34,151 nucleotides of DNA from Candidatus Krumholzibacteriia bacterium (GTDB lineage: Bacteria > Krumholzibacteriota > Krumholzibacteriia > LZORAL124-64-63), in assembly GCA_046484865.1 (NCBI GenBank), contig JAWOID010000113.1:1-34151 (forward strand). Reading direction: 5' to 3'. Position numbers and translations under genes: made by a program. Shown here piece by piece: positions 6,399-31,843 of the stretch (position 1 is its first letter; every line of letters starts with the position of its first letter). Below the pieces are notes generated by a model. The model was not told the origin of the DNA, made no database searches, and saw nothing but the letters and a program-made list of their open reading frames with translations.

Positions 6399-6426
6399 TT
6401 GACATCCAACCGCGATCTCGTACTTT
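6399..6426 (+). promoter_or_regulatory. Sigma70-like promoter (TTGACA-N16-TACTTT) upstream of kamA operon
   Basis: TTGACA at 6399-6404, then a 16-bp spacer and TACTTT(AT) at 6421-6426. It sits in a locally AT-richer stretch, about 150 nt upstream of the GTG start at 6579. Confidence 0.4.
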
Positions 6427-6578: not shown

Positions 6579-7895
6579 GTGCAGAAGCACCTCGTGAGCG
6601 GTAGGGCGTACTCGTTCAAGGTTCCCGTGCGGATCCAGGAGGTCGAGTCGGACACGTCCGACGACCCACCGTCCGCAGGAGCTGCGCCCGCCGAAGACGA
6701 ACACCACCCTCCCTCCGATGACCTCACCCACCTGATCGCCAAGCGACTGCCCGCTTCCGGGCCGCGGACCCGCGCCTTCCGGCGCGCGTTCCATCCGCGC
6801 GTGACGGACCGCGAGTGGAACGACTGGCGCTGGCAGATGCGCCACCGTGTCCGCTCCTTCGACCAGCTCGACCGGATGGTCCGGCTCTCGGACCAGGAGC
6901 GGCATGCGCTCCAGCAGGGCGGATCGATGCTGCCGGTGGCGATCACCCCGTATTACATGAGCCTGCTCGATCCAGACGATCCGCTGCAGCCCCTGCGCCG
7001 CACGGTGATCCCCGTGCAGTCGGAGTTCCTGCGCTCCGTCGGCGAGTCGGACGACCCGCTGGGCGAGGACGACCATAGCCCGGTGCCCGGTCTCGTGCAC
7101 CGCTACCCGGACCGGGTGCTCTTCCTGGTGCACGACCACTGCGCCACCTTCTGCCGCTACTGCACGCGTTCGCGCGTGGTGGGACAGGGCGAGCTGAAGC
7201 CGGACAAGGAGCGCTTGGAGGCGGGGCTCGCGTACATTCGCCGCACGCCCGCCATCCGCGACGTGCTGCTCTCGGGCGGCGATCCCCTGAACGTGGCCGA
7301 CGACCGGCTCGACTGGCTCCTGGGTGAGCTGCGGCGCATCCCGCACGTCCAGTTCCTGCGCATCGGCACCAAGGTGCCGGCGGTGTTGCCTCAGCGAGTG
7401 ACGCCGGCGCTGGCGAGGATGCTGCGCAAGCATCACCCGCTGTTCCTGAGCATCCATTTCACCCACCCGGACGAATGCACCGTGGAGACGGCGCGCGCCT
7501 GCCGGCGCCTGTCCGACGCGGGCATCCCCCTGGGATCGCAGACCGTGCTGCTCAAGGGCGTGAACGACGACGTGGTGACGATGAAGCAGCTCGTCCACCG
7601 GCTGCTGGTCATGCGCGTGCGTCCCTATTACCTGTACCAGTGCGACCCGATCTCCGGATCGAGTCATTTCCGGACGAGCGTCTCCAGAGGGCTCGAGATC
7701 ATCCGGGGCCTGCGCGGGTGGACCACCGGATACGCCGTCCCCACCTACGTCATCGACGCGCCCGGCGGCGGCGGCAAGATCCCGCTGCAGCCGGACTCGG
7801 TGGCCGGTCGGGAAGGCGATGATCTCCTGCTGCGCAATTTCGCCGGCGAGGTGTTCCGGTACCATGACCGCGGCAGCAGCGTGGAGGTGATGTGA
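6579..7895 (+). CDS. kamA: KamA-family radical-SAM amino-acid 2,3-aminomutase (lysine 2,3-aminomutase-like, PLP-dependent)
   Basis: GGAGG RBS 8 nt before GTG 6579. Conserved KamA N-terminal WNDWRWQ motif. Radical-SAM CxxxCxxC (HCATFCRYCTRS). PLP-lysine motif PTYVIDAPGGGGKIP. Full-length C-terminal domain, so not the short EpmB type. The 5' part of track ORF 6138..7895 is rejected as read-through. Confidence 0.85.
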   Translation: MQKHLVSGRAYSFKVPVRIQEVESDTSDDPPSAGAAPAEDEHHPPSDDLTHLIAKRLPASGPRTRAFRRAFHPRVTDREWNDWRWQMRHRVRSFDQLDRMVRLSDQERHALQQGGSMLPVAITPYYMSLLDPDDPLQPLRRTVIPVQSEFLRSVGESDDPLGEDDHSPVPGLVHRYPDRVLFLVHDHCATFCRYCTRSRVVGQGELKPDKERLEAGLAYIRRTPAIRDVLLSGGDPLNVADDRLDWLLGELRRIPHVQFLRIGTKVPAVLPQRVTPALARMLRKHHPLFLSIHFTHPDECTVETARACRRLSDAGIPLGSQTVLLKGVNDDVVTMKQLVHRLLVMRVRPYYLYQCDPISGSSHFRTSVSRGLEIIRGLRGWTTGYAVPTYVIDAPGGGGKIPLQPDSVAGREGDDLLLRNFAGEVFRYHDRGSSVEVM

Positions 7896-8953
7896 TGCGC
7901 ATCGGCCTGACCTACGACCTCCGGGACGAGTACCTGAGCCTGGGCTACGACGAGGAGGAGACGGCGGAGTTCGACCGCATCTCCACCATCGACGAGATCG
8001 ACGACGCCCTGCGGCGGCTCGGACACGTCACCGATCGTATCGGCCACGCCCGGCAGCTGGTGGAGCGCCTGGCGGCGGGCGAGCGCTGGGACCTGGTGTT
8101 CAACATCGCCGAGGGGATGCACGGGATCGGACGCGAGGCGCAGGTGCCGGCGCTCCTGGACGTGTATTCGATCCCCTACACCTTCAGCGATCCGCTGGTC
8201 CTCTCGCTGACGCTCCACAAGGGGATGACCAAGCGCGTCCTGCGCGACGCAGGCCTGCCCACCAGCGCCTTCGTCGAGGTGGCCGGCCTGGCCGACCTGG
8301 AGGGACTGAACCTGCCGTTCCCGCTGTTCGCCAAGCCGGTGGCCGAGGGGACGGGCAAGGGGATCGACGGCGATTCGGTGCTGCGTACGCCCGCCGAGAT
8401 GCACGAGCGCTGCGCCCTGCTGCTGGAGCGGTTCCGGCAGCCGGTGCTGGTGGAGACCTTCCTGCCCGGCCGCGAACTCACCGTGGGCATCACCGGCACC
8501 GGCGACCGCGCGCAGGTTCTGGGCACCCTCGAGGTGGTGCTGCTCGACGGCGCCGAGGCCGAGGCCTACACCTACACCAACAAGGAGAACTGCGAGGACC
8601 TGGTGGAGTACCGCCCCGTGGACGGCCGCCTCGATCCGCAGGTGCGTCGCGCCGAAGAGGCCGCGCTGGCGGCGTGGCGCCTGCTGGGCTGCCGCGATGC
8701 CGGCCGGGTGGACCTGCGCGCCGACGCGCAGGGCGTCCTGCAGATCATGGAGCTGAACCCGCTGGCGGGGCTGCACCCCGAGCATTCGGATCTGCCGATG
8801 ATCGCCACCGCTGCGGGCATGAGCTACGACGACCTGATGCGCCGCATCGTCGATTCCGCCCGCGAGCGCCTGGTGGTGGTGCCGCTGCGGGAGGTGACCG
8901 GCCATGCGTGTGCTGTTGCTGCACAACGCGGTGTCGCCGCACGCGGCGCCTGA
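7895..8953 (+). CDS. ATP-grasp ligase, D-alanine--D-alanine ligase-like (paralog 1)
   Basis: Start overlaps the kamA stop (GTGATGTGATG context; GTG 7892 or ATG 7895). Ddl-family motifs include …PFPLFAKPVAEGTGKGI…, …LVETFLPGRELTVGI… and …GRVDLRADAQGVLQIMELNPLAGL…. Confidence 0.8.
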   Translation: MRIGLTYDLRDEYLSLGYDEEETAEFDRISTIDEIDDALRRLGHVTDRIGHARQLVERLAAGERWDLVFNIAEGMHGIGREAQVPALLDVYSIPYTFSDPLVLSLTLHKGMTKRVLRDAGLPTSAFVEVAGLADLEGLNLPFPLFAKPVAEGTGKGIDGDSVLRTPAEMHERCALLLERFRQPVLVETFLPGRELTVGITGTGDRAQVLGTLEVVLLDGAEAEAYTYTNKENCEDLVEYRPVDGRLDPQVRRAEEAALAAWRLLGCRDAGRVDLRADAQGVLQIMELNPLAGLHPEHSDLPMIATAAGMSYDDLMRRIVDSARERLVVVPLREVTGHACAVAAQRGVAARGA

Positions 8954-9902
8954 CGAGGCGGACGTCCTCGCTCAGGTGGAGGCGGTCGCCGCCGCGCTGA
9001 AAGGACTGGGGCACGAGACCGCGGCGTTCGGCTGCAGCCTCGACCTGCAGGCCGTCGCCGGCGCCCTGGCCGAGTGGCGCCCCGGCGCTGTCTTCAACCT
9101 GGTCGAGAGCCTGGCCGGCCACGGACGTCTGATCCACCTGGCACCGGCCGTCGTGGAGGCGTCCGGCGTCCCGCTGGCGGGCTGCCCGACCGAGGCCATC
9201 TTCCTGACCTCGCACAAGCTCGTGGCGAAGGAATGCCTCCAGCGTGCGGGGCTGCCCACGCCCGCCTGGCTCGGCCCGGACGGCTCGCCCGGCGGGCGGC
9301 CTCCGGCGAACGAACCGCGGCAGTGGATCGTCAAGTCCGTGTGGGAGGACGCATCGCTGGGCATGGACGACGGTTCGGTGATCACCGGTACGGCCGCCGC
9401 CCGCGATCTCCTGCGGCAGCGGTGCGGCACGGCCGGCGCCCCCTGGTTCGCGGAGGCGTTCGTGGAGGGCCGCGAGTTCAACATCGCGCTGCTCGACGGG
9501 ACCGACGGCCCCCGGGTGCTGCCCCCGGCGGAGATGCTATTCGCGGACTACCCGGACGGCAAGCCGCGCATCGTGGGCTACGCCGCCAAGTGGCACGCCG
9601 ATTCCTTCGAGTACGGCCATACCGTGCGCACCTTCGACTTCCCGTCGGAGGACCGGTCGTTGCTGGACGAGCTGACCGATCTCTGCCACGCCTGCTGGCG
9701 GTCGTTCGGGCTGCGCGGCTGGGCACGGGTCGATTTCCGGGTGGACGCCGACGGGCGACCATGGATCCTCGAGGTGAACGCCAACCCCTGCCTGGCTCCG
9801 GACGCCGGCTACGTCGCCGCCGTCGAGCGGGCCGGTTCGACCTTCCCGCGGGCCGTGGCGCAGATCCTCGCCACGGCGGCCGCCGACGGCCGCCGGCCCT
9901 GA
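8904..9902 (+). CDS. ATP-grasp ligase, D-alanine--D-alanine ligase-like (paralog 2)
   Basis: ATG 8904 overlaps the 3' end of paralog 1 by about 50 nt. Motifs include …QWIVKSVWEDASLG…, …FAEAFVEGREFNIALL… and …GWARVDFRVDADGRPWILEVNANPCLAPDAG… (Ddl-type Mg/ATP site region). Confidence 0.8.
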   Translation: MRVLLLHNAVSPHAAPDEADVLAQVEAVAAALKGLGHETAAFGCSLDLQAVAGALAEWRPGAVFNLVESLAGHGRLIHLAPAVVEASGVPLAGCPTEAIFLTSHKLVAKECLQRAGLPTPAWLGPDGSPGGRPPANEPRQWIVKSVWEDASLGMDDGSVITGTAAARDLLRQRCGTAGAPWFAEAFVEGREFNIALLDGTDGPRVLPPAEMLFADYPDGKPRIVGYAAKWHADSFEYGHTVRTFDFPSEDRSLLDELTDLCHACWRSFGLRGWARVDFRVDADGRPWILEVNANPCLAPDAGYVAAVERAGSTFPRAVAQILATAAADGRRP

Positions 9903-9919: not shown

Positions 9920-11656
9920 ATGTTCCGCATCCGACGCATCCATGACGACGCCCTGCCGGTGAACCTGGCCGCCCTCGAGCAGGTGCAGGCCATCCTGCGC
10001 GACCGCTTCCCGGACGCGCCCGACAAGGACGCCGACGAACTGCCGTCCCGCCTGCGCGACCCGTACCTGCACCGGTTCCACGGCGTGCTCTACGTGGCGG
10101 AGAAGCAGAGCGGGGGCGGGGTGCAGGGGTTCGCCCTGGTGCTGCACGATGCGCAGCTGCGGATGCTCTATCTCGACTACATCGCCGCCCAGGCGCGGCT
10201 CACGAGCCGCGGCATCGGCGGCGCCCTCTACCAGCGGGTCCGCGACGAGGGCAAGGCGCTGAACGCCCGCGGCGTCTTCTTCGAGTCGCTCCCGGACGAC
10301 CCGGCCGACTGCGGCGACCGGGCGCTGCTCGTCGCGAACAAGGCGCGGCTGCGCTTCTACGAGACCTTCGGCGCCCGGCCGCTGGTGAACAACGATTACA
10401 CCAGACCGGTGCGCCCCGACGACACCTGCATGCCGTATCTGGTCTACGATCCCCTGGACGGCAAGGCGCCGGGCCGCCGCTTCGTCCGCGAGGCGGTCCG
10501 CGCCATCCTGGAGCGCAAGTACGCCCACCTGTGCCCGCCCGAGTACGTGGAGGCGGTGGTCCGCTCCTTCAAGGACGACCCGGTGCAGATGCGCGCTCCG
10601 CGCTACCGCAAGGAACCGCGGCCGGTGGCACCCGCGGTGGTGGGCCAGGAGCGGATCGCGCTCATCGTCAACCAGAAGCACGACATCCACCACGTTCACG
10701 ACCGGGGCTACGTGGAGGCGCCGGTGCGCGTATCCCGCATCCTGGCCGAGCTGGACCGGACCGAGGCCTTCGAGCGCCTGGAGGCGCGGGAACGCGGCGT
10801 CGAGCACATCAAGCAGGTGCACGACCGCGGCTACGTGGAGTACCTGCGACGGGTCTGCGCGGGGCTCGACGCGAAGCAATCGGTCTACCCGTACGTCTTC
10901 CCCGTCCGCAACGCCAGCCGGCCGCCGCAGGATCTGGCCGTGCGCGCCGGCTACTACTGCATCGACACCTTCACTCCGCTCAACCAGAACGCCTACAAGG
11001 CGGCGCGGGGGGCGGTGAACTGCGTCCTGGCCGGTGTGGAGGAGATCAGACGCGGCCGGCGGCTGGCCTATGCCCTGGTGCGGCCGCCCGGCCACCACGC
11101 GGAGCGGAGGTCGTTTGGCGGCTTCTGCTACTTCTGCAACGGCGGGATCGCGGCCAGCGAGCTGGCGCGCCTGGGCAAGGTGGCTCTGCTGGACATCGAC
11201 TACCACCACGGCAATGGCCAGCAGGACATTTTCTATGCCCGCGACGACGTGCTGACGGTCTCGATCCACGGCCATCCGCGGTTCTCGTACCCCTACTTCT
11301 CGGGCTTCGCCGAGGAAGAGGGCGAGGGCGCCGGCCGCGGCTTCAATCTCAACCTGCCGCTGCCGGAGACCATCGATGCGATCCGCTACCGCGAAGCGCT
11401 GGAGCAGGCGCTGCGCCGGGTGCGTTCGTTCAAGCCGGCGGTACTGGTGGTGTCGCTGGGGCTGGACACCGCCAAGGGTGACCCGACCGGCACCTGGTTC
11501 CTGGCGGCCGACGACTTCTTCGAGAACGGGCGCCGCATCGGCGCCATGGGCCTGCCGACCCTGGTGGTGCAGGAGGGCGGCTACCGCACCCGCACCCTGG
11601 GTCGCAACGCGCGCGCCTTCTTCGAGGGGCTGCGCAAGGGAGAGCGCGAATCGTGA
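9920..11656 (+). CDS. Bifunctional fusion: N-terminal GNAT acetyltransferase domain + C-terminal histone-deacetylase/acetylpolyamine-amidohydrolase (HDAC/AcuC/APAH) family domain
   Basis: GGAGG RBS before ATG 9920 (MFRIRRIHDD…). N-terminal ~180 aa carry GNAT motif A (…SRGIGGALYQRV…). C-terminal ~390 aa carry the HDAC signatures RPPGHHA, DIDYHHGNG, SLGLDTAKGDP and QEGGY. The upstream part of track ORF 9074..11656 is rejected. Confidence 0.8.
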   Translation: MFRIRRIHDDALPVNLAALEQVQAILRDRFPDAPDKDADELPSRLRDPYLHRFHGVLYVAEKQSGGGVQGFALVLHDAQLRMLYLDYIAAQARLTSRGIGGALYQRVRDEGKALNARGVFFESLPDDPADCGDRALLVANKARLRFYETFGARPLVNNDYTRPVRPDDTCMPYLVYDPLDGKAPGRRFVREAVRAILERKYAHLCPPEYVEAVVRSFKDDPVQMRAPRYRKEPRPVAPAVVGQERIALIVNQKHDIHHVHDRGYVEAPVRVSRILAELDRTEAFERLEARERGVEHIKQVHDRGYVEYLRRVCAGLDAKQSVYPYVFPVRNASRPPQDLAVRAGYYCIDTFTPLNQNAYKAARGAVNCVLAGVEEIRRGRRLAYALVRPPGHHAERRSFGGFCYFCNGGIAASELARLGKVALLDIDYHHGNGQQDIFYARDDVLTVSIHGHPRFSYPYFSGFAEEEGEGAGRGFNLNLPLPETIDAIRYREALEQALRRVRSFKPAVLVVSLGLDTAKGDPTGTWFLAADDFFENGRRIGAMGLPTLVVQEGGYRTRTLGRNARAFFEGLRKGERES

Positions 11657-12192
11657 GCCGAACCGAGCGCAAGCAGGCAGCCGGGACGCCCGGCCGGGGT
11701 GGCGCGGCCGCCGGTGCAGCGGTCCTGCGGGACGACGTACGACCTTCGGACGTGGCCGCCGTCCGCGACCTCGTGGCCGCCACCGGCTTCTTCAGTGCCG
11801 AGGAGGTGGGAATCGCCGCCGAGCTGGTGCAGGAGCACCTCGAGAAGGGAGCGGCCAGCGGCTACGAGTTCCTCTTCGCCGAGGTGGACGGGCGCGTGGT
11901 GGGCTACACCTGCTACGGCTTGATCCCGTGCAGCACCGTCAGCTGGGACGTCTACTGGATTGCGGTCGACCCGGACCAGCAGGGGAGCGGGCTGGGGCGG
12001 CGGCTCATGGCAAAGACCGAAGACCGGGCGCGCGCACGCGGCGGTGTGACGGTCTTCGCCGAGACCAGCGGTCGCGCCCAGTACGAGCCCACGCGCGGCT
12101 TCTATCACCGCTGCGGTTACCACGAGGCCGCGCTGCTCGAAGATTTCTATGCGGTCGGCGACGCCAAGGTGATTTTCGCGCGCCGCCTGTGA
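11653..12192 (+). CDS. GNAT family N-acetyltransferase
   Basis: GTG start overlaps the stop of the preceding gene (GTGA). GNAT core (…VGYTCYGL…WIAVDPDQQGSGLGRRLM…). Confidence 0.8.
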   Translation: MSRTERKQAAGTPGRGGAAAGAAVLRDDVRPSDVAAVRDLVAATGFFSAEEVGIAAELVQEHLEKGAASGYEFLFAEVDGRVVGYTCYGLIPCSTVSWDVYWIAVDPDQQGSGLGRRLMAKTEDRARARGGVTVFAETSGRAQYEPTRGFYHRCGYHEAALLEDFYAVGDAKVIFARRL

Positions 12193-14476: not shown

Positions 14477-14944
14477 TCAGCGGAAGAGTCGCCTCACCGC
14501 CGACCAGCTCGTCTCCTCGGCCGTTACCCCACATGGTTCGAACTGCCCGCGGATCGCGCCGTTGGGGAACGCGGAAGTGTGGACCTGGACGTAGATGTTG
14601 CCCAGGAACAGCGCCTCCACCTCGGTGGCGGTGGGCATCCACGTGCCGGTGACGGACTGCCCGCTTTCGAGCGGGAAGACGACCGGACCGTTCTCTCCGA
14701 ATGCTCCGATGTGCAGGTGAGCGCCGGTGACGTCCACGAGTCCCTGGTACTCGAGGTAATACGCCACCTCGGTCTGGGCGGCGTTCAGGAACAGAGCGGC
14801 ATGACCGGTCCCCGTGACCGGGGTCGGCGGTACCACCTCTGTCCCGTCGAGTCCGGCCACGAAGCTCCATTCGAGTGCTGCGGCTCCGCCGGCCAGCAGC
14901 AGACTGAACGCTCCGATCAGCATGATGCGCCTAGCAATGCTCAC
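14477..14944 (-). CDS. CHRD-domain secreted protein
   Basis: GGGAGGG RBS 6 nt before GTG 14944. Signal peptide (…RRIMLIGAFSLLLAGGAAA). CHRD signature GAHLHIGAFGENGPVV. Track ORF 14477..15133 is trimmed at its 5' end. Confidence 0.7.
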   Translation of the reverse strand: MSIARRIMLIGAFSLLLAGGAAALEWSFVAGLDGTEVVPPTPVTGTGHAALFLNAAQTEVAYYLEYQGLVDVTGAHLHIGAFGENGPVVFPLESGQSVTGTWMPTATEVEALFLGNIYVQVHTSAFPNGAIRGQFEPCGVTAEETSWSAVRRLFR

Positions 14945-15223
14945 GTGTTTCCCTCCCGTGACGCGAGACGTTCTGCCGGCCGCACGATATCGCACACCAT
15001 ATCGGCGATGGTGTCTGGTGCGGTTGACCGGCCCTTCCGTCGGCCGCGCGCGGGAGCGATCCTCATTCCCCCCACGGATCACGCGTCGAGCGACCGCATT
15101 CCGGTCTTGTCCGTGCAGAAACTGCTCTGTCAATAACAGTGGGAAGGAAAGGCGCGATCATCGGGGTGTCCCCGAACGGCGGCCCGAGAAACCCCCGATC
15201 CGCACGACCCCGCTGCCGGCGGC

Positions 15224-15955
15224 TCAGTGCCTGGCGCTGTCGCTCTCTTGCGCGGTCGGTCCGGAGCGCAGGCGCGGGAACAGGACATTGTTCTCCTTGT
15301 GGATGTGGCGGTGCGTGTCGCGCTCCAGCTCGGCGATGGCCCGGACGAGCGCGCGCCAGCTCTCGCAGGCGTCGTCCGGCGTGGCGTGGTCGCCGGTCAG
15401 TCGCCGCATCGTCGCCAGGAGCTCGCCCGCCTGCTCGTGTTCGGTCTCCATCACCCGGAGCGGACCCTCCAGGTGGTGCGCTCGTCCGGAGGCGCCGTCG
15501 TCCTCGCTGGCGCGGGCGAAGGCGCGGACGGCAGGGAAAAGGATCTGCTCCTCCTTCGCCAGGTGGCTCTCGATCTCGGCCCGGAAGCCGCCGATGACCC
15601 GTTCCAGCTCGACCAGCTCCGGGTGCCGGTCGCCATGGGCGTCGCGCACGCGGGCGGCGAGTTCGGTCAGGCGCGGCAGCTCCGACTTGAGATAGGCGTG
15701 GTGGAGGCCCTCGATATGATCGACCAGTTCCTGGAGGTCCATGCCCGCGACGTCCGACTCGTCGTCGCTCGCCGCGGCCGCGGGCATGCTTTCGAGCATG
15801 AGCGCGACGGTGTCGGCATCGAGCCCGCGCTCGGCGCAGGCGTCGGCCAGGGACCGCTGGCCGCCGCAGCAGTAGTCGAGCTGCAGACGGTCGAAGACCC
15901 CCGCCAGATGAGGTCGGGCGCGCACCAGCTCGCCGAGGGTGGTCCGGGTGTTCAT
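15224..15955 (-). CDS. ytfE: Iron-sulfur cluster repair di-iron protein (YtfE/ScdA/RIC)
   Basis: N-terminal ScdA_N motif (GELVRARPHLAGVFDRLQLDYCCGG). Hemerythrin-like C-terminal domain with His/Glu ligand spacing (…HHAYLKSE…, …HIHKENNVLFP…). Confidence 0.85.
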   Translation of the reverse strand: MNTRTTLGELVRARPHLAGVFDRLQLDYCCGGQRSLADACAERGLDADTVALMLESMPAAAASDDESDVAGMDLQELVDHIEGLHHAYLKSELPRLTELAARVRDAHGDRHPELVELERVIGGFRAEIESHLAKEEQILFPAVRAFARASEDDGASGRAHHLEGPLRVMETEHEQAGELLATMRRLTGDHATPDDACESWRALVRAIAELERDTHRHIHKENNVLFPRLRSGPTAQESDSARH

Positions 15956-16149
15956 GTCGGCAACCTCCTGATCGCAAGGAATCGAGGACGACGCGGTCCT
16001 GATGAGGCCAACGTAAGCGCACCGGCCCCTGAGTCAAGACTAATTTCGTCGTGTTTCCGTCCGGCGCCGGTGCGATTAGGTTGGGCAGCGGCAGCCGTAT
16101 GCCGGACGGCGTGTGACGGCGCCCGGCCGACCCGATCGAGGAGGGGTCC

Positions 16150-16527
16150 ATGACCGACTACCACGAGCCGTGGGACGCGCAGTCCGAGGAGGACCGGAAC
16201 ATCCACCGGGCTCTGATGAGCCTCAAGGAGGAGATCGAGGCGGCGGACTGGTATCACGAGCGCGCCGCCGCCACGCGCGACGAGTCCCTGCGCAAGATCC
16301 TCGTCCACAACCGCGACGAGGAGATCGAGCACTCCTGCATGCTGCTGGAGTGGCTGCGCCGCAGGATGCCGGCCTTCCAGGAGCAGCTCTCGCTCTACCT
16401 CTTCAAGGAAGAGGACATCACCGAGATCGAGGAGATGGCGGAAAGCGGCGACGAGGACGGGCAGGAAGTCGAGGCCGCCCCCGGATCGACCGGGCTCGGC
16501 ATCGGCAAGCCGAAGGGGGATGAATGA
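16150..16527 (+). CDS. Encapsulated ferritin-like cargo protein (EncFtn/Flp-type) with C-terminal encapsulin targeting peptide
   Basis: 125 aa. Di-iron E-x-x-H-type motifs (EEIEAADWYHERAA, EEIEHSCMLLEWL). C-terminal tail …GSTGLGIGKPKGDE resembles the G-x-L-G-I-G-x-L-K encapsulin cargo-loading peptide. Stop overlaps the start of the shell gene (ATGA). Confidence 0.7.
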   Translation: MTDYHEPWDAQSEEDRNIHRALMSLKEEIEAADWYHERAAATRDESLRKILVHNRDEEIEHSCMLLEWLRRRMPAFQEQLSLYLFKEEDITEIEEMAESGDEDGQEVEAAPGSTGLGIGKPKGDE

Positions 16528-17351
16528 TGGATTTCCTGCGCAGAGGGCTGGCGCCGGTGGCGTCCGGAGCCTGGGGTGAGATCGACGAGACCGTCGCACG
16601 CGTGCTGCGCGCGCAGCTCCGCGGCCGGTCGGTGGTCGACGTGGAGGGTCCGTTCGGGCTGGACCGGGCCGCCGTGGGCCTGGGCCGCCTGAATTCGGTC
16701 AGCAACCCCGAGAAGGGTGAGGTTGGTTTCGGCGTGCACCGCGTCCAGCCGCTGGTGGAGACACGCGTGTCGTTCGACCTGGACGTCTGGGAGCTGGACA
16801 ACCACGCCCGCGGCGCGGTGGACCTGAAGCTCGACGCGGCCGAGGAGGCCGCGCGCGCCATCGCCCGCTTCGAGGACGAAGCGGTCTTCAACGGTTTCGA
16901 CGACGGCTCGATCGTCGGTCTGACCGAACTCCGGGAACACGACCCGGTGGCCATCGCCGCCGAGCCCGGATCGTTCCTCGACGGAGTGGCGCGGGCGCTG
17001 CTCACGCTCCGGGACGCCGGCGTGGAAGGGCCGTACGCCCTGGTCCTCGGCCCCGACCTCTACCGGCTGTACGCCACCCATGCCGCAGGCTATCCGCTGA
17101 AGAAGCAGGTCCAGAATCTCGTGGAAGGCGACGTGGTGTACGCGCGCAGTCTCGAAGGGGCCCTGCTGCTGAGCCAGCGCGGCGGCGACTTCGTGCTGAC
17201 GCTGGGCCAGGACCTGGCGGTGGGCTACGAGGGCCATACCAACCGAACGGCCACCCTCTTCATCACGGAGTCGTTCACCTTCCGCGTGGTCGACCCGAAC
17301 GCCGGGGTCGTGCTCCCGGTGAAGAGCAGCCAGGACGCTGTGCCCGGGTAA
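16524..17351 (+). CDS. Family-1 encapsulin nanocompartment shell protein (HK97-fold, linocin M18-like)
   Basis: 275 aa, typical family-1 length. Sequence recognised as encapsulin shell (…VETRVSFDLDVWELDN…, …GPYALVLGPDLYRLY…, …FVLTLGQDLAVGYEGH…). Immediately downstream of the cargo gene, with start/stop overlap. Confidence 0.8.
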   Translation: MMDFLRRGLAPVASGAWGEIDETVARVLRAQLRGRSVVDVEGPFGLDRAAVGLGRLNSVSNPEKGEVGFGVHRVQPLVETRVSFDLDVWELDNHARGAVDLKLDAAEEAARAIARFEDEAVFNGFDDGSIVGLTELREHDPVAIAAEPGSFLDGVARALLTLRDAGVEGPYALVLGPDLYRLYATHAAGYPLKKQVQNLVEGDVVYARSLEGALLLSQRGGDFVLTLGQDLAVGYEGHTNRTATLFITESFTFRVVDPNAGVVLPVKSSQDAVPG

Positions 17352-17491: not shown

Positions 17492-18388
17492 CTAGACAGC
17501 GTCCAGGTACTCCGCGACCGCGACGCGAGCGAACTCCGGCAGCGCGAAGGCCGCCCGGTGGATGTCGAGGTTGTAGTAGCGCCCCGGCAGCCCGGCGGCC
17601 ACCGCGCGTTCGGGCTTCAGGTCGCCGACCGGGCGCAGCCCCAGCGACGCGAAGCTGAACGACCAGAGACCACCCGGATAGGTGAGGTTGGAGTAGTCGT
17701 AGAGGTTGAGCTGCGGGAACACATCCCGCAGCGTTCCCATCAGGCTGCGCTGGGCTGCGCCCTCGTACCACGGGTTCTCACCCTGGGAGACGACGATCCC
17801 CTGCCGGGTGAGCACCCGCTTCACGTCGCCGTAGAATTCGCGGCCGAAGAGCGGCTGGGCCGGTCCGATCGGGTCGGTGGAATCGACCAGCACCACGTCG
17901 TAACGATCGGCGGTGTCGCGGACGAAGGCCACGCCGTCGCCGATGGTCACCTGGACGCGAGGATCGTCGAGGGCGGCCGACGTCAGGCGCAGGTGCTCCC
18001 GGCAGGCGTCTACCACCATCGCGTCGATCTCGACCAGTCGCACGTGCTCCACCGACGGATGGCGGAGAACTTCGCGCACGGTGCCGCCGTCACCGCCGCC
18101 GATGACCAGGACGCGGCGCGGATCCGGGTGCACGCAGAGCGGCACGTGCGCGATCATCTCGTGATACGCGAACTCGTCGCGCTCGGTGACCATCACCAGG
18201 CCGTCGTTGAGCAGCATGCGACCGTGGCCGGCCGTCTCCACCACGTCGACGCGCTGGAACTCGCTGCGGCCGGAGAAGAGCACGCGGGTGACCCGGAAGC
18301 GGCTGGCGTAGATGTCGCGGAAGCGCTCCTCGATCCAGAGGTCGAGCGGCGCGCCCTCGCCGGCGCCGGCGGGCTGGGTCTCGTTCAT
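17492..18388 (-). CDS. speE: Spermidine synthase (aminopropyltransferase)
   Basis: 298 aa. Motifs VLVIGGGDGGTVREV (AdoMet-derivative binding) and VVLVDSTDPIGPA. The start ATG overlaps the stop of the upstream gene (ATGA). Track ORF 17492..19390 is trimmed to this start. Confidence 0.9.
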   Translation of the reverse strand: MNETQPAGAGEGAPLDLWIEERFRDIYASRFRVTRVLFSGRSEFQRVDVVETAGHGRMLLNDGLVMVTERDEFAYHEMIAHVPLCVHPDPRRVLVIGGGDGGTVREVLRHPSVEHVRLVEIDAMVVDACREHLRLTSAALDDPRVQVTIGDGVAFVRDTADRYDVVLVDSTDPIGPAQPLFGREFYGDVKRVLTRQGIVVSQGENPWYEGAAQRSLMGTLRDVFPQLNLYDYSNLTYPGGLWSFSFASLGLRPVGDLKPERAVAAGLPGRYYNLDIHRAAFALPEFARVAVAEYLDAV

Positions 18389-19362
18389 GACGTGCTCCTC
18401 TCGACCCGCGGCTCGCGCTGCAGGTGGGCGTATTCCACGGCATAGCCGCAGCTCAGGACCCGCCCCGTCCGGTGGGTGACGGTCAGGCCTCCGGTCACGG
18501 CGCCGGCCTCGTCCGGGTCCAGCGCGAGACTCCTCTGGAAGATGAGCAGCTCCGCCCTGGCCGGGCGGAACGCTTCCAGCAGGCGGGCGACGACGGCCCG
18601 CTGGCCGGCCGCGTCCAGCTGCCGGTTGGTCTCGAAGCTCACGTACGATCCGATGCGCTGCGGGGTCACGTGCAGGGTGGCGTAGGTGGAGCCGCCGAGG
18701 GCGTTGTAGGAGTAGCCCTGCGGCGCGAAGATGTGGTCGTCCACCGCCAGGTCGCCGAAGAGGTCGGCCAGGCCCGACCGGCGCCGCAGCTCGGGAGCGT
18801 CGTTGCGGCCCGGGACGAACAGCCCGCCCACATCGTCGGGGATGCCGTGCATGAGCAGCTCCAGCGTCGTGTCGTCGGCGTCCGGTTGCCAGGCCCGGTC
18901 CAGATGGAACAGCGCGATGTGATCCCCGTCCGCATCGCCGAACACCTCGGTGGCGCCCGCGACCAGCGCCCGCAGCCGCACCACGTCGTCGTCGAACGAC
19001 GACCGCTGCAGGTGGGGGAAGTTCTCGTTCTTGCGCTCGTAGATCACCGATGCCAGCGCGGCGCCGGTGCCCACCTGCCGCAGGATGCGCTCGGCCGCCA
19101 CCGCCAGCGTGGTCCGGCCGCAGGTGATCATCAGCAGGCGGTCGTCCCAGACGAAGAGGCTCGACTCCGAGAGCAGGTAGGCGTCGCATTCCGGGCTCGA
19201 GAGCTGCGAGAGGATCTCGGCCTCCGCCGCGGCCACGACGCCCTCCCAGAAGGTCGGTCCCAGCCCGCGCAGAGGCGGCGCCGCGGGGGCGAGCAGCACC
19301 TCCAGCTTCTTCTCCGGACCCTCGAACAGCATCTCCACCTCCTCCGTCGTCGCGGCGGCCAA
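18385..19362 (-). CDS. S-adenosylmethionine decarboxylase proenzyme, class II (eukaryotic-type)
   Basis: 325 aa. N-terminal FEGPEKKLEV… matches the eukaryotic-type AdoMetDC signature. LLSESSLFV contains the Glu-Ser autoprocessing site that generates the pyruvoyl cofactor. Upstream of and overlapping speE. Confidence 0.85.
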   Translation of the reverse strand: MAAATTEEVEMLFEGPEKKLEVLLAPAAPPLRGLGPTFWEGVVAAAEAEILSQLSSPECDAYLLSESSLFVWDDRLLMITCGRTTLAVAAERILRQVGTGAALASVIYERKNENFPHLQRSSFDDDVVRLRALVAGATEVFGDADGDHIALFHLDRAWQPDADDTTLELLMHGIPDDVGGLFVPGRNDAPELRRRSGLADLFGDLAVDDHIFAPQGYSYNALGGSTYATLHVTPQRIGSYVSFETNRQLDAAGQRAVVARLLEAFRPARAELLIFQRSLALDPDEAGAVTGGLTVTHRTGRVLSCGYAVEYAHLQREPRVERSTS

Positions 19363-20127: not shown

Positions 20128-22452
20128 GTGCCGGACGAGATACGGATCAAGGTGGCGGAGTCCCGTCAGCCGGATGTCGGCAAGGGCCTCGTCAGGCTGT
20201 CGGTGGACGCCATGGCCACGCTCGGTCTCCAGGACGGCGGACTGGTGGAGCTCGAAGGCAAGCGGCGCACGGCGGCCGTCGTGCTCTCGGGCTTTCCGGA
20301 GGACGAGGGGCTCGACATCGTCCGCATGGACGGCCTGCTGCGCGGCAACGCGGGCATCGGTATCGGTGAGCAGGTGCTGGTGCGCCGGGCCGACGCCAAG
20401 GAGGCGCGCTCGGTCACGCTCTCGCCCGCCAAGCCGGGTGTGCGCCTGGGCGGATCGGGCGACGGTCTGAAGCCGACGCTGCTGCACCGGCCGCTGGTCA
20501 CGGGCGACCTCATCTCCACCAGCGTGTTCAAGCGCATGCCCGACCAGATGCCGCCGGGCGCCACGCCGAACGAATTCCTGCGCGGCATGCTGCAGTCGCG
20601 CGCCTTCGGCCTGATGGAGATCCGGCTGGTCGTGATGAAGACGCAGCCCACGGGTGTGGTGCGGGTGACCGAGAACACCCAGATCGAGCTGCTGCCCGAA
20701 TACGAGGGCGATCCCGAGCATGCGATCCGCGAGGTCACCTACGATGACATCGGCGGCATCCGCCCGGTCATCCAGAAGCTGCAGGAGATGGTGGAACTGC
20801 CGCTGAAGCATCCCGAGCTCTTCGCCAGGCTGGGCATCGATCCACCCAACGGCGTGCTGCTGCACGGCCCCCCGGGCACCGGCAAGACCCTGCTGGCGAA
20901 GGCGGTGGCGCAGGAATCGGATGCGGCCTTCTTCGTCATCAACGGCCCGGAGATCATGGGGAAGCACTACGGCGAGTCCGAGGAACGCCTGCGCGCGGTG
21001 TTCGAGGAGGCGGCTCAGAACGCTCCGGCCATCGTCTTCATCGACGAGCTCGACTCGATCGCGCCCAAGCGGGCGGAGGTCACCGGCGAGGCGGAGCGGC
21101 GCATCGTGGCGCAGCTCCTGACGCTCATGGACGGCATGCGCGACCGGCGCAAGCTGATGGTGATCGGCGCCACGAACCGGGTGGACGCCATCGACCAGGC
21201 GCTGCGTCGCCCCGGTCGGTTCGACCGCGAGATCGAGGTGCGCATCCCGGACCGGGTGGGTCGTCTGGAGATCCTGCAGATCCACACGCGCGGCATGCCG
21301 CTGGAGAAGGATGTCGACATCGCCGACCTGGCGGAGCACACCCACGGGTTCACGGGTTCGGACATCGCCGCACTGGTCAAGGAAGCGGCTCTCGCCACCC
21401 TGCGGCGGCTCATGCCCACGATGAACCTCGAGGAGGAGACCATCCCGCCCGAGGTCCTGGAGCGGCTGATCGTGCAACGGCAGGACTTCGATCAGGCCCG
21501 CAAGGAAGTGCAGCCGTCCGCCCTGCGCGAGGTCATCGTGGAGGTGCCGGCGGTGCGCTGGGACGACGTGGGCGGCCTGCAGGACGTCAAGCGCCTGCTG
21601 CACGAGATGGTGGAGTTGCCGCTGCAGAGCCCGGAGGCCTTCGAACGCCTCGGCATCAGGCCGGCGAAGGGGCTGCTGCTCTACGGGCCGCCCGGAACCG
21701 GCAAGACCCTCATCGCGAAGGCGGTGGCCACCGAGGCGGGAGCGAACTTCCTGTCGGCCAAGGGCAGTTCGCTGCTCTCCAAGTGGTACGGGGAGTCCGA
21801 GAAGCGGGTGGCGGAGTACTTCGCCCGCGCCCGACAGGTGACGCCGGCCATCCTCTTCTTCGACGAACTCGACGCCCTCGCGCCGGCGCGCGGCGGCTCC
21901 CTCGGCGAGCCGCACGCCACCGAGCGGGTCGTGAACCAGCTGCTCGCCGAGATGGACGGCATGGAGGAGTTGCGCGGCGTCGTGGTGCTGGGCGCCACCA
22001 ACCGTCCCGACCGCATCGATCCGGCGCTGCTGCGCCCCGGGCGTTTCGACGAGATGGTCTACGTGTCCATTCCCGACCTCGAAGCTCGCCGGTCCATCCT
22101 GGCGGCCCACACGCGCGAGATGGCGCTCGACGAGGATGTCGATCTGGAGAAGCTCGCCCAGATCACCGACAGGTTCACCGGCGCGGACATCGCCGGCGTC
22201 TGCGCGCGGGCCGGGATCTTCGCCCTGCGCGAGAACGTGGAAGCCGAGGCGGTGACGATGGACCACTTCCAGCGCGCGGTGAAGGAGACCATCCCGTCGG
22301 TCACCCCCGAGATGGAGCGGCAGTACCAGAAGGTGGCGCGGCAGGTGAAGCAGCAGGCCTCGCGGATCGGCTTCCTCACCGAGGAGGAGACCGCCGCCGC
22401 AAAGGCCGCCTCGGCCGCCGCCTCCGCTTCTGCGCAGCGCCCGGAAGAATAG
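20128..22452 (+). CDS. Cdc48/p97/VCP-like AAA+ ATPase (N-terminal double-psi-barrel domain + two AAA domains)
   Basis: 774 aa. AAGGAGA RBS before GTG. Cdc48-type N-domain (…[23 protein letters not shown]…). Two Walker A (GPPGTGKT x2) and two Walker B ([16 protein letters not shown]) motifs. Second-region-of-homology arginines are present. Confidence 0.9.
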
Positions 22453-26642: not shown

Positions 26643-27608
26643 CTTCTCGCCGGCGGTCACCGCGACCGGGAGCCGGTTCTCCGGGGGCGGCAGCGGACAG
26701 GTGGCGTACGGGGTGAAGACGCAGGGCGGGTTGGTGGCCCGGTTGAAGTCGAGCACGACCCGTCCTTCTGCGTCCGGCGCCGGCGCGGACAGGAACCGCC
26801 CGCCGGCGTAGGTGGTCTGGCCGCTGGTGGCGTCGGCGAAGACGATGAACAGCGGCTGGCCGGTCTCGCCCACGGGGGTCAGCTCGCAGCGCCGGCCCTC
26901 CAGCTCGAACACCAGGGTTCCGGGCGTGGGTTCACGGTCGACCTGGCCCAGGACGTTCGGCATCTCCACGGAGCGCGGCTCGGCGTCGGGCACGAGTTGC
27001 GCCTCCACCCGCCAGCGGATGTCCACCGGGAATCGCTCCACGCCCTCGAAGCCGCGTCGCACGGAACTCTCGCTGTCACGCACGCGCAGGAACCGGCGTC
27101 CGCCACGATCGATGACGTGGAAGCTGACGCTCCCGGTCCTCACCACCGTGGGTTCGGCGCCGGCATCGCTCGCGAGCGCGGTCACAGCGCCGCCTGCGAG
27201 CGGCATTCCGTTCGCCGTCACCTCCGCCCCGGGTGCGGCGCGCAGCAGCACCTCCTGTTCGTTCACCTCCAGCGTTCCGAGGTCGGCGGGCGCATCCGCA
27301 GGCAGGACGACAGCCGCGTCCGAACGCGATCCCACGGTGTGTTCGCCGGGGCTCAGCTCGTGCAGACCCACGAGGGTGAGCCAGCCGTCGGGCGCCGTGA
27401 GCCGGTCGATGCGTCCAGCGTGCCAGGCGTCCACCTCCGCCGCATAGTCCGCGGAGGTGACCGGCCCGCCGTCGCCGCAGCCGCCGGCGGCAGCCGGTAG
27501 CACGGCAGCCAGGAGCACGGCCGCCGCGACCCGCAGTCGGCGCTCCGGTTGTGCCAGCGAAAATGTGTCCGGGGTCGTCGCGGGCCAGAATGAGCGGAAT
27601 CGGGCCAT
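26622..27608 (-). CDS. DUF1684 family protein, probable lipoprotein
   Basis: Motifs …TTYAGGRFL… and …DFNRATNPPCVFTPYATCPLPP… match DUF1684. Signal with lipobox-like …LPAAAGGC. Start is ambiguous: ATG 27608 (MARFRS…) or ATG 27638 (MKFFGVWIKI…). The upstream part of track ORF 26622..28328 is rejected. Confidence 0.7.
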   Translation of the reverse strand: MARFRSFWPATTPDTFSLAQPERRLRVAAAVLLAAVLPAAAGGCGDGGPVTSADYAAEVDAWHAGRIDRLTAPDGWLTLVGLHELSPGEHTVGSRSDAAVVLPADAPADLGTLEVNEQEVLLRAAPGAEVTANGMPLAGGAVTALASDAGAEPTVVRTGSVSFHVIDRGGRRFLRVRDSESSVRRGFEGVERFPVDIRWRVEAQLVPDAEPRSVEMPNVLGQVDREPTPGTLVFELEGRRCELTPVGETGQPLFIVFADATSGQTTYAGGRFLSAPAPDAEGRVVLDFNRATNPPCVFTPYATCPLPPPENRLPVAVTAGEKMWGDHH

Positions 27609-27744
27609 TATTTTGATCCAGACTCCGAAAAATTTCATCTCCAGTGCTCTCCTGAGGTGCGGTACGGGCCTGGACACAGTTTCCCTGGCAGAACCGATGT
27701 TACCGCGGTTGCATGGGCGCGGCGAGCGGAGATCACGCCCCGCC

Positions 27745-29811: not shown

Positions 29812-30144
29812 ACGCGTGACCTCGGGTCGGGGGATGGGCGATGCCGACCATCCGCTTGCAAGCCGCCGACCAGCCGCGGACCTCCGGACGAGCGAACGTG
29901 AAGGCCGTAACCGAATGCCAGGATAGGGATTCCGGAGCTCGATGACCCCAGACGGCCGTGACGACCACCGGCGGGCGCCGGCGCCGGCGGATTCAAATCG
30001 GCCGCCGCCGGACGGGGCTCGACCAGCCCTTCCCGGGCGTCGCCCGCGGTCCTGACCGATCGTGATTACCTTCCCAGGTGCGGGTCGTACCGGCGGCGAG
30101 AGGCCGCGTCCGGCAAACGTTTCGACGGGATCGGAGGGTCCGCG

Positions 30145-31275
30145 ATGGTGATCGGTATCCGTCTGCTGCTCGCGTTGATCGGCGCGGGTCTCGTCGGCAT
30201 CGTCGCTCCGGCGCCGGCGCCGGGCCGAGTGGCGGCGCCGGTTGCGGCGTCGGTCGCGGCGGGTCCCGGGCGCTGCCTGGCCGAGGGCTGGAACCTGGTA
30301 CAGGAGGCCACCAGCGACCGCCAGTGGACCGGCATCGCCGTGGCCGGCGACGGCCGCGTGTTCGTCTGCTTTCCGCGCTGGTCGCCGGACGTCCCGGTGA
30401 GCGTGGCTCTCCTCACCCGGGGCGAGCCGGTGCCGTACCCCGACCGGGAGTGGAACTGCTGGAACGCCGGCGACGAGGCCGATCTCGATCCGTCGCGTCG
30501 TTTCGTCTGCGTGCAGAGCGTGCACGTCGACGCCCGCGATCGCCTGTGGATCCTCGATCCCGCCAGTCCGATGTTCCAGGGCGTGGTGCCGGGAGGCGCC
30601 AAGCTGCTGGAGGTGGACCTCGCCGCCGACCGCGTCGTGCGCACGATCGTCTTCCCGCCGCACATCGCGCCGCCCGCGAGCTATCTCAACGACGTGCGTG
30701 TGGATGTCGCGACCGAGACGGCGTACCTGACGGACTCCGGCGAGGGAGCTCTCGTGATCGTGGATCTCGCGAGCGGCGCGATGACCCGCCGGCTCGCCGG
30801 GCACCCGGCGACCCGGGCCGACGGCATCGAGGTGGTCGTCGATGGACGTCGCTTCGACCGGCCCGTGCACGCCGACGGCATCGCCCTGGACGCCGTCGGC
30901 GGCTGGCTCTACTTCCAGCCGTTGACCTCCCGCACGCTGCGGCGGCTGCCGCTGGTGGCACTGCGGGACACCGGCCTCGATGACGAGGCGCTGGCCGCCC
31001 GCATCACCGAGGTGGCCGACAGCGGCGTGGCGGACGGTCTGCTGTACGCCTACGGTGGCGTGCTGTTGTCGGCGCTCGAGGCGGGCGAGGTGCGCCACGT
31101 CTCGCCCGGCGGTTACATGGTGACCCTGGTGCGGGATCCCCGCGTGTCGTGGCCCGACAGCTTCGCCCTGGGGCCGGATGGCAGCGTCTGGTTCACCACC
31201 TCGCAGATCCACCTCGGACGCAAGCCGGTGACCCCCTACCGGGTGCTGCGGCTGATACCCGCGAGCGCCCGCTGA
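30145..31275 (+). CDS. Major royal jelly protein / yellow family (MRJP) secreted beta-propeller protein
   Basis: GGAGGG RBS. Signal peptide (MVIGIRLLLALIGAGLVGIVAPAPA). MRJP/yellow-like motifs (…ETAYLTDSGEGALVIVDL…, …DGIALD…, …PDSFALGPDGSVWFTTSQ…). Confidence 0.75.
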   Translation: MVIGIRLLLALIGAGLVGIVAPAPAPGRVAAPVAASVAAGPGRCLAEGWNLVQEATSDRQWTGIAVAGDGRVFVCFPRWSPDVPVSVALLTRGEPVPYPDREWNCWNAGDEADLDPSRRFVCVQSVHVDARDRLWILDPASPMFQGVVPGGAKLLEVDLAADRVVRTIVFPPHIAPPASYLNDVRVDVATETAYLTDSGEGALVIVDLASGAMTRRLAGHPATRADGIEVVVDGRRFDRPVHADGIALDAVGGWLYFQPLTSRTLRRLPLVALRDTGLDDEALAARITEVADSGVADGLLYAYGGVLLSALEAGEVRHVSPGGYMVTLVRDPRVSWPDSFALGPDGSVWFTTSQIHLGRKPVTPYRVLRLIPASAR

Positions 31276-31498
31276 TCCGCGAGCACGCACCGCGGGCCCG
31301 TCCGGGTGCCCGCTGATCCGCGCCGGTGCGCCGGCCGGCCCTGCGTTCGGGCCCGGGTTTCGACTCCGGCTCCGCGCGATCGGGCGATGCTGGTGTCCGG
31401 ACGGGGTCCGGTGGTATGGTGTCGTCTCAGGGGATACCCGCGCGAGTGCTGCCCGCGATGGCGCCGGCGCAGTCTGACGGCGAGCAAAGGATGGGGCC

Positions 31499-31843
31499 AT
31501 GAGGTACAAGTACGAGTCACAGGGGGGCGATCTGGTCGTCCTGACCCTCTCCGGCAAGGTGATGGGTGGGCCCGATTTCGAGAAGTTCCACGCGGACGTC
31601 AAGAACCTGGTGGAGGAGGGACATCGCCGCTTCCTGCTCGACTTCTCCAAGGTGGACTGGATCAACTCCACCGGTATCGGCATCATGGTGTCGGCCTTCC
31701 ACTCGATCAAGGCCGCCGAGGGGCGGATGGTGATCTGCGGGGCCAACAAGCGGGTGCGCGGCATCTATTACGTCTCCAAGCTGGACCAGATCTTCGAGAC
31801 CTTCGACAGCTGCGACGAGGCGATGCGGGCCTTGCAAGCGTGA
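31499..31843 (+). CDS. STAS-domain protein (anti-sigma-factor antagonist, SpoIIAA-like)
   Basis: 114 aa. STAS fold signature (…LVVLTLSGKVMGGPDFEKF…LLDFSKVDWINSTGIGIMV…). Confidence 0.8.
   Translation: MRYKYESQGGDLVVLTLSGKVMGGPDFEKFHADVKNLVEEGHRRFLLDFSKVDWINSTGIGIMVSAFHSIKAAEGRMVICGANKRVRGIYYVSKLDQIFETFDSCDEAMRALQA

Follow-up and report, generated by a model that had tools for sequence, protein, structure and literature searches.

Why should a bacterium place an enzyme that adds acetyl groups and an enzyme that removes them on one polypeptide chain? Acetyl writers and erasers are normally separate and opposing. A conserved fusion of the two, at times with a second writer attached, would imply that acetyl groups are put on and taken off a small amine in a fixed order, probably with channelling. 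The question is raised by a gene, here called FUS, on contig JAWOID010000113.1 of a Candidatus Krumholzibacteriia bacterium (assembly GCA_046484865.1, positions 1 to 34,151 of the forward strand; this whole stretch of 34,151 nt is called the window). FUS encodes an N-terminal GNAT acetyltransferase domain and a C-terminal zinc-dependent deacetylase domain of the acetylpolyamine amidohydrolase (APAH) type, and is the fourth of five packed genes that lie on the same strand and overlap or abut. We conclude that its product is a real, conserved two-domain protein with the catalytic signatures of both domains intact. On its function we are more tentative: we favour, with slightly less than even confidence, a bifunctional small-molecule enzyme that serves as an accessory acetyl handler of a β-lysine pathway and acts on different nitrogens or intermediates.

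The gene and its parts are as follows (aa, amino acids).

9920..11656, plus strand: fusion gene FUS, GNAT plus APAH-type deacetylase, 578 codons and one terminal stop codon
9920..10459, plus strand: GNAT acetyltransferase domain (fusion part 1), aa 1-180
10460..10669, plus strand: helical linker (fusion part 2), aa ~181-250, with the conserved pattern ILERKY...CPPEYV...SF.DDPV..R.PRY
10670..11656, plus strand: APAH-type zinc-deacetylase domain (fusion part 3), aa ~251-578, and the stop codon

The reading frame is continuous, with zero internal stops in the 578 aa translated from 9920-11656. The ATG at 9920 lies 9 nt past a GGGAGG ribosome-binding site and 17 nt past the stop codon of the preceding gene, and third-position GC content marks the fusion frame as coding across the span (~9960 to 11700). 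A longer listed open reading frame (ORF) starting at 9074 is the same open frame extending back over the upstream gene. Every motif quoted in the earlier note was found in the translation: the GNAT pyrophosphate-loop motif SRGIGGALYQRV at aa 96-107, and the deacetylase motifs RPPGHHA (aa 388-394), DIDYHHGNG (aa 425-433), GLDTAKGDP (aa 514-522) and EGGY (aa 552-555). Its central claim, that one chain carries a GNAT and a zinc-deacetylase domain, is borne out by the continuous ORF, the Pfam matches and the invariant catalytic residues. The signatures it assigned to the C-terminal domain also stood, and the length of ~390 aa did not: the domain starts at about aa 250 and spans ~330 aa.

That an assembly error or a frameshift has joined two separate genes is virtually excluded. 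The continuous two-domain ORF recurs in 80 independent genome loci, and all of the 120 best database homologues have the same architecture, with the linker conserved; they are 59-73% identical to the window protein and share its N-terminus and junction. Nothing was found in favour of an artefact; a few database entries (e.g. P0172, P0186) are truncated or frameshifted fragments. From their sequences, both halves look catalytically competent.

The deacetylase domain was matched by Pfam Hist_deacetyl (PF00850) on aa 265-570 with 246.3 bits (E = 5.5e-73, profile positions 2-297 of 298). Residue invariance in the fusion family was assessed across 74 homologues, and the whole catalytic set proved invariant: the tandem H392/H393, the metal ligands D425, D427, H429 and D516, and Tyr555. 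The best sequence matches in the PDB are all APAHs (9gkz, E = 2.7e-72; 6phr, 1e-69; 3q9b, 1e-65), with 35-39% identity over about 340 residues. In a Foldseek search the APAHs took ranks 1-16 with template modelling (TM) scores of 0.82-0.89, and HDAC6, HDAH, AcuC-like and class-I-like enzymes ranked well behind. By its closest matches in sequence and structure the domain is therefore of the APAH type, and the label AcuC-type given to it earlier was wrong. Graf et al. 2024 (PMC11532494) assign enzymes such as these closest structures to their cluster 4; among the bacterial clusters, polyamine deacetylase activity is confined to it.

The fold, the tandem histidines, the Asp-His-Asp zinc site and the catalytic tyrosine are shared with the cluster 4 APAHs such as 9gkz, 6phr and 3q9b. 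However, no solved APAH has an N-terminal GNAT domain and linker, and the family has three replacements of its own. Firstly, the gatekeeper segment reads DPTGTW, with invariant T523, where APAHs have DPIS, so that PTG stands for PIS. Secondly, the position of MrApaH Glu106 and PsApaH His106 at the end of the L2 loop is Ala341 in the window protein and Ser in the family consensus. Finally, in the salt bridge Arg95-Asp163 of the head-to-head APAH dimer, which is formed through the L1 and L2 loops, the arginine equivalent R330 is invariant and the Asp163 position is occupied by Arg397, the L1 and L2 loops having low predicted local distance difference test (pLDDT) values in the monomer model. By these sequence features the fusion deacetylases are a distinct subgroup of the APAH type.

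The class of the deacetylase bears on the possibility that the protein is an AcuA/AcuC-like writer and eraser of protein lysines, switching pathway enzymes or other proteins by reversible acetylation. Both superfamilies do include protein-lysine enzymes, and PsApaH, a member of cluster 4, deacetylates peptides to some extent (PMC11532494). However, the domain is APAH-type and not AcuC-type, the neighbourhood contains no acetyl-CoA synthetase or other known target (acsA was found neither in the window operon nor among the recurrent neighbours of the fusion), and a writer and an eraser on one chain working at one site would be futile. We consider this explanation very improbable, and the analogy with AcuA and AcuC proposed in the earlier note fails on the same two counts, the APAH-like matches and the missing synthetase.

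The N-terminal domain was matched by Pfam Acetyltransf_1 (PF00583) on aa 23-126, marginally above the cut-off in the window copy (21.4 bits against 20.7). The GNAT hidden Markov model thus did recognise the region, and the earlier assignment passed a test that could have overturned it. Precomputed PF00583 or PF13508 matches are recorded for many fusion homologues. Because the score is borderline, the domain was also examined independently of Pfam. Motif A is present as R97-G-I-G100-G-A102, with G98, G100, Y104 and R108 invariant; in motif B, N140, R143, F146, Y147, E148 and G151 are invariant; and so are E122 on β5 and the β4 bulge L85-D86. In GNAT enzymes generally, these residues, including Y147 of the FYE triplet, E122 and the bulge, are acetyl-CoA-binding or catalytic positions. 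An AlphaFold2 model of aa 1-240, built from the 74 homologues (pLDDT 93.5, predicted TM score (pTM) 0.90), has the central mixed sheet and the β4/β5 V-shaped opening of the GNAT α/β fold. As judged from these residues and from the model, the domain is firmly a GNAT despite its weak Pfam score. Its acceptor side is acidic, with D9, D10, D86, E122 and D126 all invariant.

This GNAT subfamily is narrow. Among 1.84 billion representative proteins it comprises 461 clusters at E <= 1e-3, nearly all of which are the N-terminus of proteins of 575-600 aa or ~750 aa, or fragments at contig ends. Three proteins of 236-242 aa (P0153, P0176, P0219) consist of the fusion-type GNAT and linker only, stopping just past the R.P.Y motif; they may be stand-alone N-domains or split genes.

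The linker helices 186-200 and 207-215 were seen in both AlphaFold2 models, and the linker residues L197, Y201, Y209, S216, P221 and R225 are invariant. The linker runs directly into the L1 loop of the deacetylase, which in APAHs is the active-site lid (Graf et al. 2024, PMC11532494). The models thus suggest that the GNAT domain is positioned at the deacetylase entrance. The only segments modelled with low confidence are three invariant loops around that entrance (aa 259-265, 325-331 and 398-401), which would be compatible with induced fit or with dependence on an oligomer.

The same features could be taken to mean that the GNAT domain does no catalysis and serves as an acetyl-CoA sensor, or as a lid regulator that gates the deacetylase, so that the chain would have a single chemical activity. 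The direct connection to the lid loop, the fit of the entrance loops to ordering induced by a ligand or partner, and the marginal Pfam score of the window copy all point that way. However, the usual GNAT catalytic residues (Tyr147, Glu122 and the L85-D86 bulge, with roles assigned from GNATs in general) are invariant in the homologues, and so are the acidic residues of the acceptor side, for which a pure CoA sensor has no need. We regard a purely regulatory GNAT domain as improbable.

The other genes of the module are listed below, with the promoter-like motif ahead of them.

6399..6404, plus strand: promoter-like -35 hexamer TTGACA, ahead of the operon, weak evidence
6579..7895, plus strand: lysine 2,3-aminomutase LAM, a KamA/AblA-like radical SAM enzyme; first gene, GTG start after GAGGAGG
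7895..8953, plus strand: Ddl-like ATP-grasp ligase AG1; ATG overlapping the LAM stop codon (TGATG), GGAGGTG upstream
8904..9902, plus strand: ATP-grasp ligase AG2, a paralogue of AG1; ATG preceded by GGGAGGTGA, overlapping the tail of AG1 by 50 nt
11653..12192, plus strand: small GNAT protein GN2; GTG overlapping the fusion stop codon (GTGA), last gene

By this layout LAM-AG1-AG2-FUS-GN2 is a translationally coupled operon. The overlap of 50 nt between AG1 and AG2 is given as called; at most other loci AG1 and AG2 do not overlap, one following the other directly or after a short gap. The TTGACA hexamer and the TCGCGCCA block that follows it are shared by the window and a Krumholzibacteria relative (L084). 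A full sigma-70 site ahead of LAM was not found by a consensus scan, the LAM leader folds into no more structure than its shuffled versions (z = 0.74), and neither the window nor the leader has any Rfam match.

The best NCBIfam model for LAM is AblA (TIGR03820), with 484.6 bits, below the equivalog cut-off of 525.4. LAM aligns with the clostridial enzyme of PDB 2A5H (E = 2e-136) and retains Asp293 and Asp330, the residues that bind the lysine ε-ammonium group and are replaced in glutamate 2,3-aminomutase. With both present, β-lysine is the likely precursor. Glutamate and arginine 2,3-aminomutases were considered as alternative identities and rejected, as their models scored lower than AblA and both aspartates are kept. 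LAM ends ~40 residues short of the clostridial enzyme: the alignment with 2A5H stops at residue 366 of 416, and Pfam LAM_C is matched over positions 1-56 of 127 only. The missing C-terminal part probably accounts for the AblA score below the cut-off.

Pfam Dala_Dala_lig_C matches AG1 with E = 2.7e-23 and AG2 with E = 3e-14, and the NCBIfam Ddl model gives 143 and 82 bits, respectively, against a cut-off of 243. E. coli DdlB, whose numbering reproduced all the expected residues, served as the reference for an alignment of 51 AG1 and 50 AG2 sequences. The ATP-grasp catalytic residues K97, K144, E180, E187, K215, R255, D257, E270 and N272 (DdlB numbering) are invariant. The positions that bind D-Ala are replaced: E15 by A, H63 by E, Y216 by E and L282 by D in AG1, and E15 by D, H63 by E, Y216 by W and L282 by G in AG2. 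V18 is aligned with D in AG1/AG2. The identity of D-Ala-D-Ala ligase was rejected for both proteins, given the Ddl scores below the cut-off and the replaced residues. AG1 and AG2 look like active ligases with acidic pockets, and the replacements are consistent with cationic substrates.

GN2 is matched by Pfam Acetyltransf_1 with E = 2e-15 and is an orthologue of PDB 2R7H (E = 1.3e-46), an uncharacterised structural-genomics entry. The latter is a single-domain protein, and its name, putative D-alanine N-acetyltransferase, is an annotation guess; the only citing paper found concerns an unrelated tRNA-acetylating toxin. In an NCBIfam scan at E <= 0.01 the AblB model TIGR03827 matched neither GN2 nor the fusion.

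To what extent do these genes belong together? A set of loci seeded with the fusion comprised 81 loci, 38 of which are well flanked, with at least 5 kb on both sides. A second set, seeded with AG1, was drawn from metagenome contigs, with the view limited to ±8 kb, and contained 22 well-flanked loci (4.5 kb or more on each side). All five genes were found in 43 of the 81 fusion-seeded loci, several others being cut by contig ends, and LAM was adjacent to the fusion in 47. The module is complete in 25 of the 38 well-flanked fusion loci and partial in three more; in the AG1-seeded set it is complete in 11 of 22. The complete module occurs in Planctomycetota, Desulfobacterota, Chloroflexota, Bacteroidota, Alpha- and Gammaproteobacteria, and others. 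The order LAM-AG1-AG2-FUS-GN2 was observed in 24 loci and LAM-AG1-AG2-GN2-FUS in 13; further arrangements are LAM-FUS-AG1-AG2-GN2 (Bacteroidales), AG1-AG2-GN2-LAM-FUS and two divergent ones, at least six in all.

No conserved flanking genes were found around the module. Clustering of all ORFs at the 81 loci otherwise yielded shadow ORFs, generic ABC ATPases, histidine kinases and one cysteine-rich ORF. Three genes of the window, encoding an SDR protein, an HI0933-like flavoprotein and a GFO/IDH/MocA oxidoreductase, were considered as members and rejected, as they are not conserved with the module. The cysteine-rich ORF, of ~170 aa with the pattern CxxC...CC...C, lies between LAM and AG1 in five loci, one of them (L012) from a metagenome-assembled genome (MAG) of Pirellulaceae; its product may assist the radical SAM enzyme as an accessory metal or Fe-S protein. 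Its positions are as follows.

L004:1428-2048, cysteine-rich ORF
L012:5107-5637, cysteine-rich ORF
L038:5482-5988, cysteine-rich ORF
L041:179-661, cysteine-rich ORF
L051:5342-5926, cysteine-rich ORF

A scan with one genome per species confirmed the fusion architecture in at least 598 species-level genomes from more than ten phyla, with Planctomycetota, Desulfobacterota, Krumholzibacteriota, Dehalococcoidales, Bacteroidales, Alpha- and Gammaproteobacteria, Myxococcota, Lentisphaeria, Synergistaceae and Brocadiaceae, and others, among the matches listed. The database search proposed in the earlier note thus returned many GNAT-deacetylase fusions, mostly beside β-lysine and ligase genes. In about 20 of the best 120 homologues there is a triple fusion GNAT-APAH-GNAT of ~750 aa with GN2 at its C-terminus; the C-terminal extensions of P0059, P0091, P0098 and P0106 align with GN2, and the locus of Desulfococcus multivorans reads LAM-AG1-AG2-triple fusion. 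The joining of GN2 to the fusion protein would, on the Rosetta-stone principle, link the latter to the pathway. As for the opinion that the fusion is unusual, it holds in the sense that the protein is unstudied, and does not hold for the architecture, which is common in public genomes and already annotated by the Joint Genome Institute as 'AcuC-like enzyme/GNAT superfamily N-acetyltransferase'; the window protein itself is publicly named 'acetylpolyamine amidohydrolase'.

The following scheme would accommodate these observations. The aminomutase would produce β-lysine, the two Ddl-like ATP-grasp ligases, with their acidic non-D-Ala pockets, would make amide bonds to it, and GN2 together with the fusion would determine which amines bear an acetyl group. 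The fusion would acetylate one nitrogen and deacetylate another nitrogen, or another intermediate. Two options can be considered, a sequence of protection, ligation and deprotection, or relocation of the acetyl group between the β- and ε-amines, and either would escape a futile cycle. β-Lysine has two amines and one carboxylate; its activation as an acyl phosphate would invite attack by its own ε-amine, which transient N-acetylation would block. In arginine biosynthesis N-acetylation prevents a self-reaction of this kind, and ArgA/ArgE and the bar/dea pair of bialaphos biosynthesis are precedents for the protect/deprotect logic. The choice of an APAH-type pocket would also be rational: N-acetylputrescine is an APAH substrate, and the distance from acetamide to ammonium in Nε-acetyl-β-lysine is the same as in that compound.

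Acetyl-CoA would merely be wasted if one nitrogen were both acetylated and deacetylated, so the domains most likely have different nitrogens or intermediates as their targets. The acidic residues of the GNAT acceptor side and of the ligase pockets would fit cationic substrates, and for a deacetylase that is co-transcribed with and fused to acetyltransferases a biosynthetic protect/deprotect role would fit better than antagonism on one nitrogen. Of the two suggestions made in the earlier note, the one in which a β-lysine or polyamine-type substrate is modified at different nitrogens in successive steps appears to fit the context best, given LAM in the operon, the APAH-type domain and the acidic acceptor side; a built-in futile-cycle regulator is possible and is not supported.

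Several observations count against this reading. In 10 of the 38 well-flanked fusion loci the fusion occurs alone, with no pathway gene nearby. Conversely, the other 11 of the 22 AG1-seeded loci (L095, L097, L105, L106, L110, L112, L118, L122, L124, L136, L159) contain LAM and both ligases, and GN2 in 9 of the 11, with no fusion within ~5-7 kb; neither a substitute hydrolase nor any other recurrent neighbour was found at these loci. As the core exists without the fusion and the fusion without the core, the latter is not demonstrably essential to the core pathway and may serve in turnover or salvage instead. Further, with E106 replaced by A or S and PIS by PTG, the substrate cannot be read from homology. 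The full-length AlphaFold2 model has a pTM of 0.62 and an uncertain inter-domain geometry. Finally, no publications on the fusion or the gene cluster were found in full-text literature searches. The module is best described as a four-gene core with an often linked, sometimes fused, separable fifth component.

The separability is also the starting point for the strongest alternative, turnover or homeostasis. Here the four-gene core would make an N-acetylated β-lysine compound, for example a compatible solute related to Nε-acetyl-β-lysine or a peptide resembling N-acetylglutaminylglutamine amide (NAGGN), the APAH domain of the fusion would deacetylate it, and the GNAT domain would re-acetylate or detoxify the freed amine. 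Many of the host MAGs are, according to their record titles, of saline, marine or soda-lake origin, although freshwater and soil MAGs are among the hosts too. The spacing in Nε-acetyl-β-lysine, which resembles that of the APAH substrate N-acetylputrescine, would suit a degradative deacetylase as well. A known osmolyte is derived from β-lysine, and ablA genes are under osmotic control (PMC9337991). However, with a degradative deacetylase co-transcribed with and fused to the acetyltransferase of the biosynthesis, a futile cycle would follow unless the enzyme is regulated, the AblB model is matched by neither GNAT, and the classical synthesis of Nε-acetyl-β-lysine has no role for two ligases. On balance we consider turnover unlikely, though well within the range of serious options.

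A generic role in polyamine acetylation and deacetylation, with the β-lysine genes linked only through co-transfer on a mobile island, has to be considered together with other genes of the window. The genes downstream of the module are as follows.

14477-15133, minus strand: CHRD-domain protein (Pfam)
15224-15955, minus strand: ScdA/RIC-type di-iron hemerythrin (Pfam)
16117-16527, plus strand: EncFtn-like gene (E = 1.8e-35), overlapping the encapsulin start
16524-17351, plus strand: encapsulin shell gene, Linocin_M18 (E = 1.5e-84)
17492-18445, minus strand: spermidine synthase
18385-19362, minus strand: S-adenosylmethionine decarboxylase, PF01536 family (E = 1.5e-56)
20128-22452, plus strand: Cdc48-like double-AAA ATPase (Pfam)

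The spermidine synthase and the S-adenosylmethionine decarboxylase, the latter of the eukaryote-type family PF01536, are encoded ~6 kb from the fusion, and the nearest solved relatives of the deacetylase are polyamine deacetylases. Moreover, the fusion is better conserved than its neighbours, with 51-61% identity between phyla against 28-74%, and is sometimes found alone. However, polyamine genes are not conserved beside the fusion at other loci, the features of APAH specificity (E106 and PIS) are replaced by family-specific invariant residues, and a linkage that survives at least six gene orders and fusion with GN2 is hard to explain without a shared function. We therefore rate a generic polyamine enzyme, too, as having a low probability, and retain the accessory role in the β-lysine pathway as the preferred reading.

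The other genes listed are side observations. The EncFtn-like and encapsulin genes form a ferritin-cargo encapsulin operon, and the CHRD, hemerythrin and Cdc48-like genes are unrelated to the fusion. The GC content peaks at 78% at 28001-29000, compared to ~70% elsewhere in the window; this segment lies inside two long overlapping ORFs, 27457-29901 on the plus strand and 27745-31764 on the minus strand. The lone-fusion loci have varying neighbours (peptidases M19, M20 and M60, DUF2126, RimK/RimB, DNA polymerase III, GH95). One of them, L085:8001-12158 from Krumholzibacteriia, carries a fusion that is 64% identical to the window protein, no β-lysine genes, and convergent genes for a RimK-type ATP-grasp protein and a RimB-like protease.

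What would the module produce? It is possible, though we would not call it likely, that it makes or remodels a β-lysine metabolite that has not been described. This would be an N-acetylated peptide or amide of β-lysine that acts as an osmolyte, stands in for polyamines or is bioactive, and that is common among anaerobic and sediment bacteria in more than ten phyla; the fusion would then be dedicated to relocating acetyl groups or to protection and deprotection, each chain having two or three active sites. If so, this enzyme logic appears, as far as we could find, to be undescribed for small-molecule amines. The fusion itself is already visible in public annotations; what appears undescribed is the pathway around it, the triple fusion and the nature of the ligases, which are not Ddl enzymes, and the main text of Graf et al. 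2024 (PMC11532494) does not mention GNAT fusions. The link to an aminomutase and two unusual ligases flags a compact pathway of four or five genes. Solving it would add a β-lysine-derived metabolite, with osmoadaptation or polyamine-like roles as candidates, would correct thousands of annotations as 'D-alanine-D-alanine ligase', 'histone deacetylase' and 'acetylpolyamine amidohydrolase', and would give enzymology a natural bifunctional acetyltransferase/deacetylase. The pathway is directly testable, as cultured hosts, e.g. Desulfococcus multivorans, carry the module.

Three known systems can be compared with this module. In the AcuA/AcuC system a GNAT is likewise paired with a zinc-dependent deacetylase, and the two superfamilies are the same. 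However, AcuA and AcuC are not joined in one chain, their target is a protein lysine, that of acetyl-CoA synthetase in Bacillus, and AcuC belongs to cluster 2c (class-I-like), whereas the fusion domain is APAH-like.

The AblA/AblB pathway to the osmolyte Nε-acetyl-β-lysine shares with the module a lysine 2,3-aminomutase beside a GNAT, AblA being the best NCBIfam match of LAM. The differences are that the window LAM scores below the AblA cut-off and lacks the C-terminal end, that the AblB model is unmatched, and that the module adds two ATP-grasp ligases and a deacetylase, which are absent from the Abl pathway.

The third comparison is with acetylated peptides made by GNAT and ATP-grasp enzymes: NAGGN is made by Ngg, and N-acetylaspartylglutamate by NAT8L and RIMKLA/B. 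The logic is the same, as an amino acid is acetylated and then extended by one or more ATP-grasp ligases to an N-acetyl peptide. The module differs from these systems in having Ddl-like rather than RimK-like ligases, a β-amino acid as the precursor, and a deacetylase.

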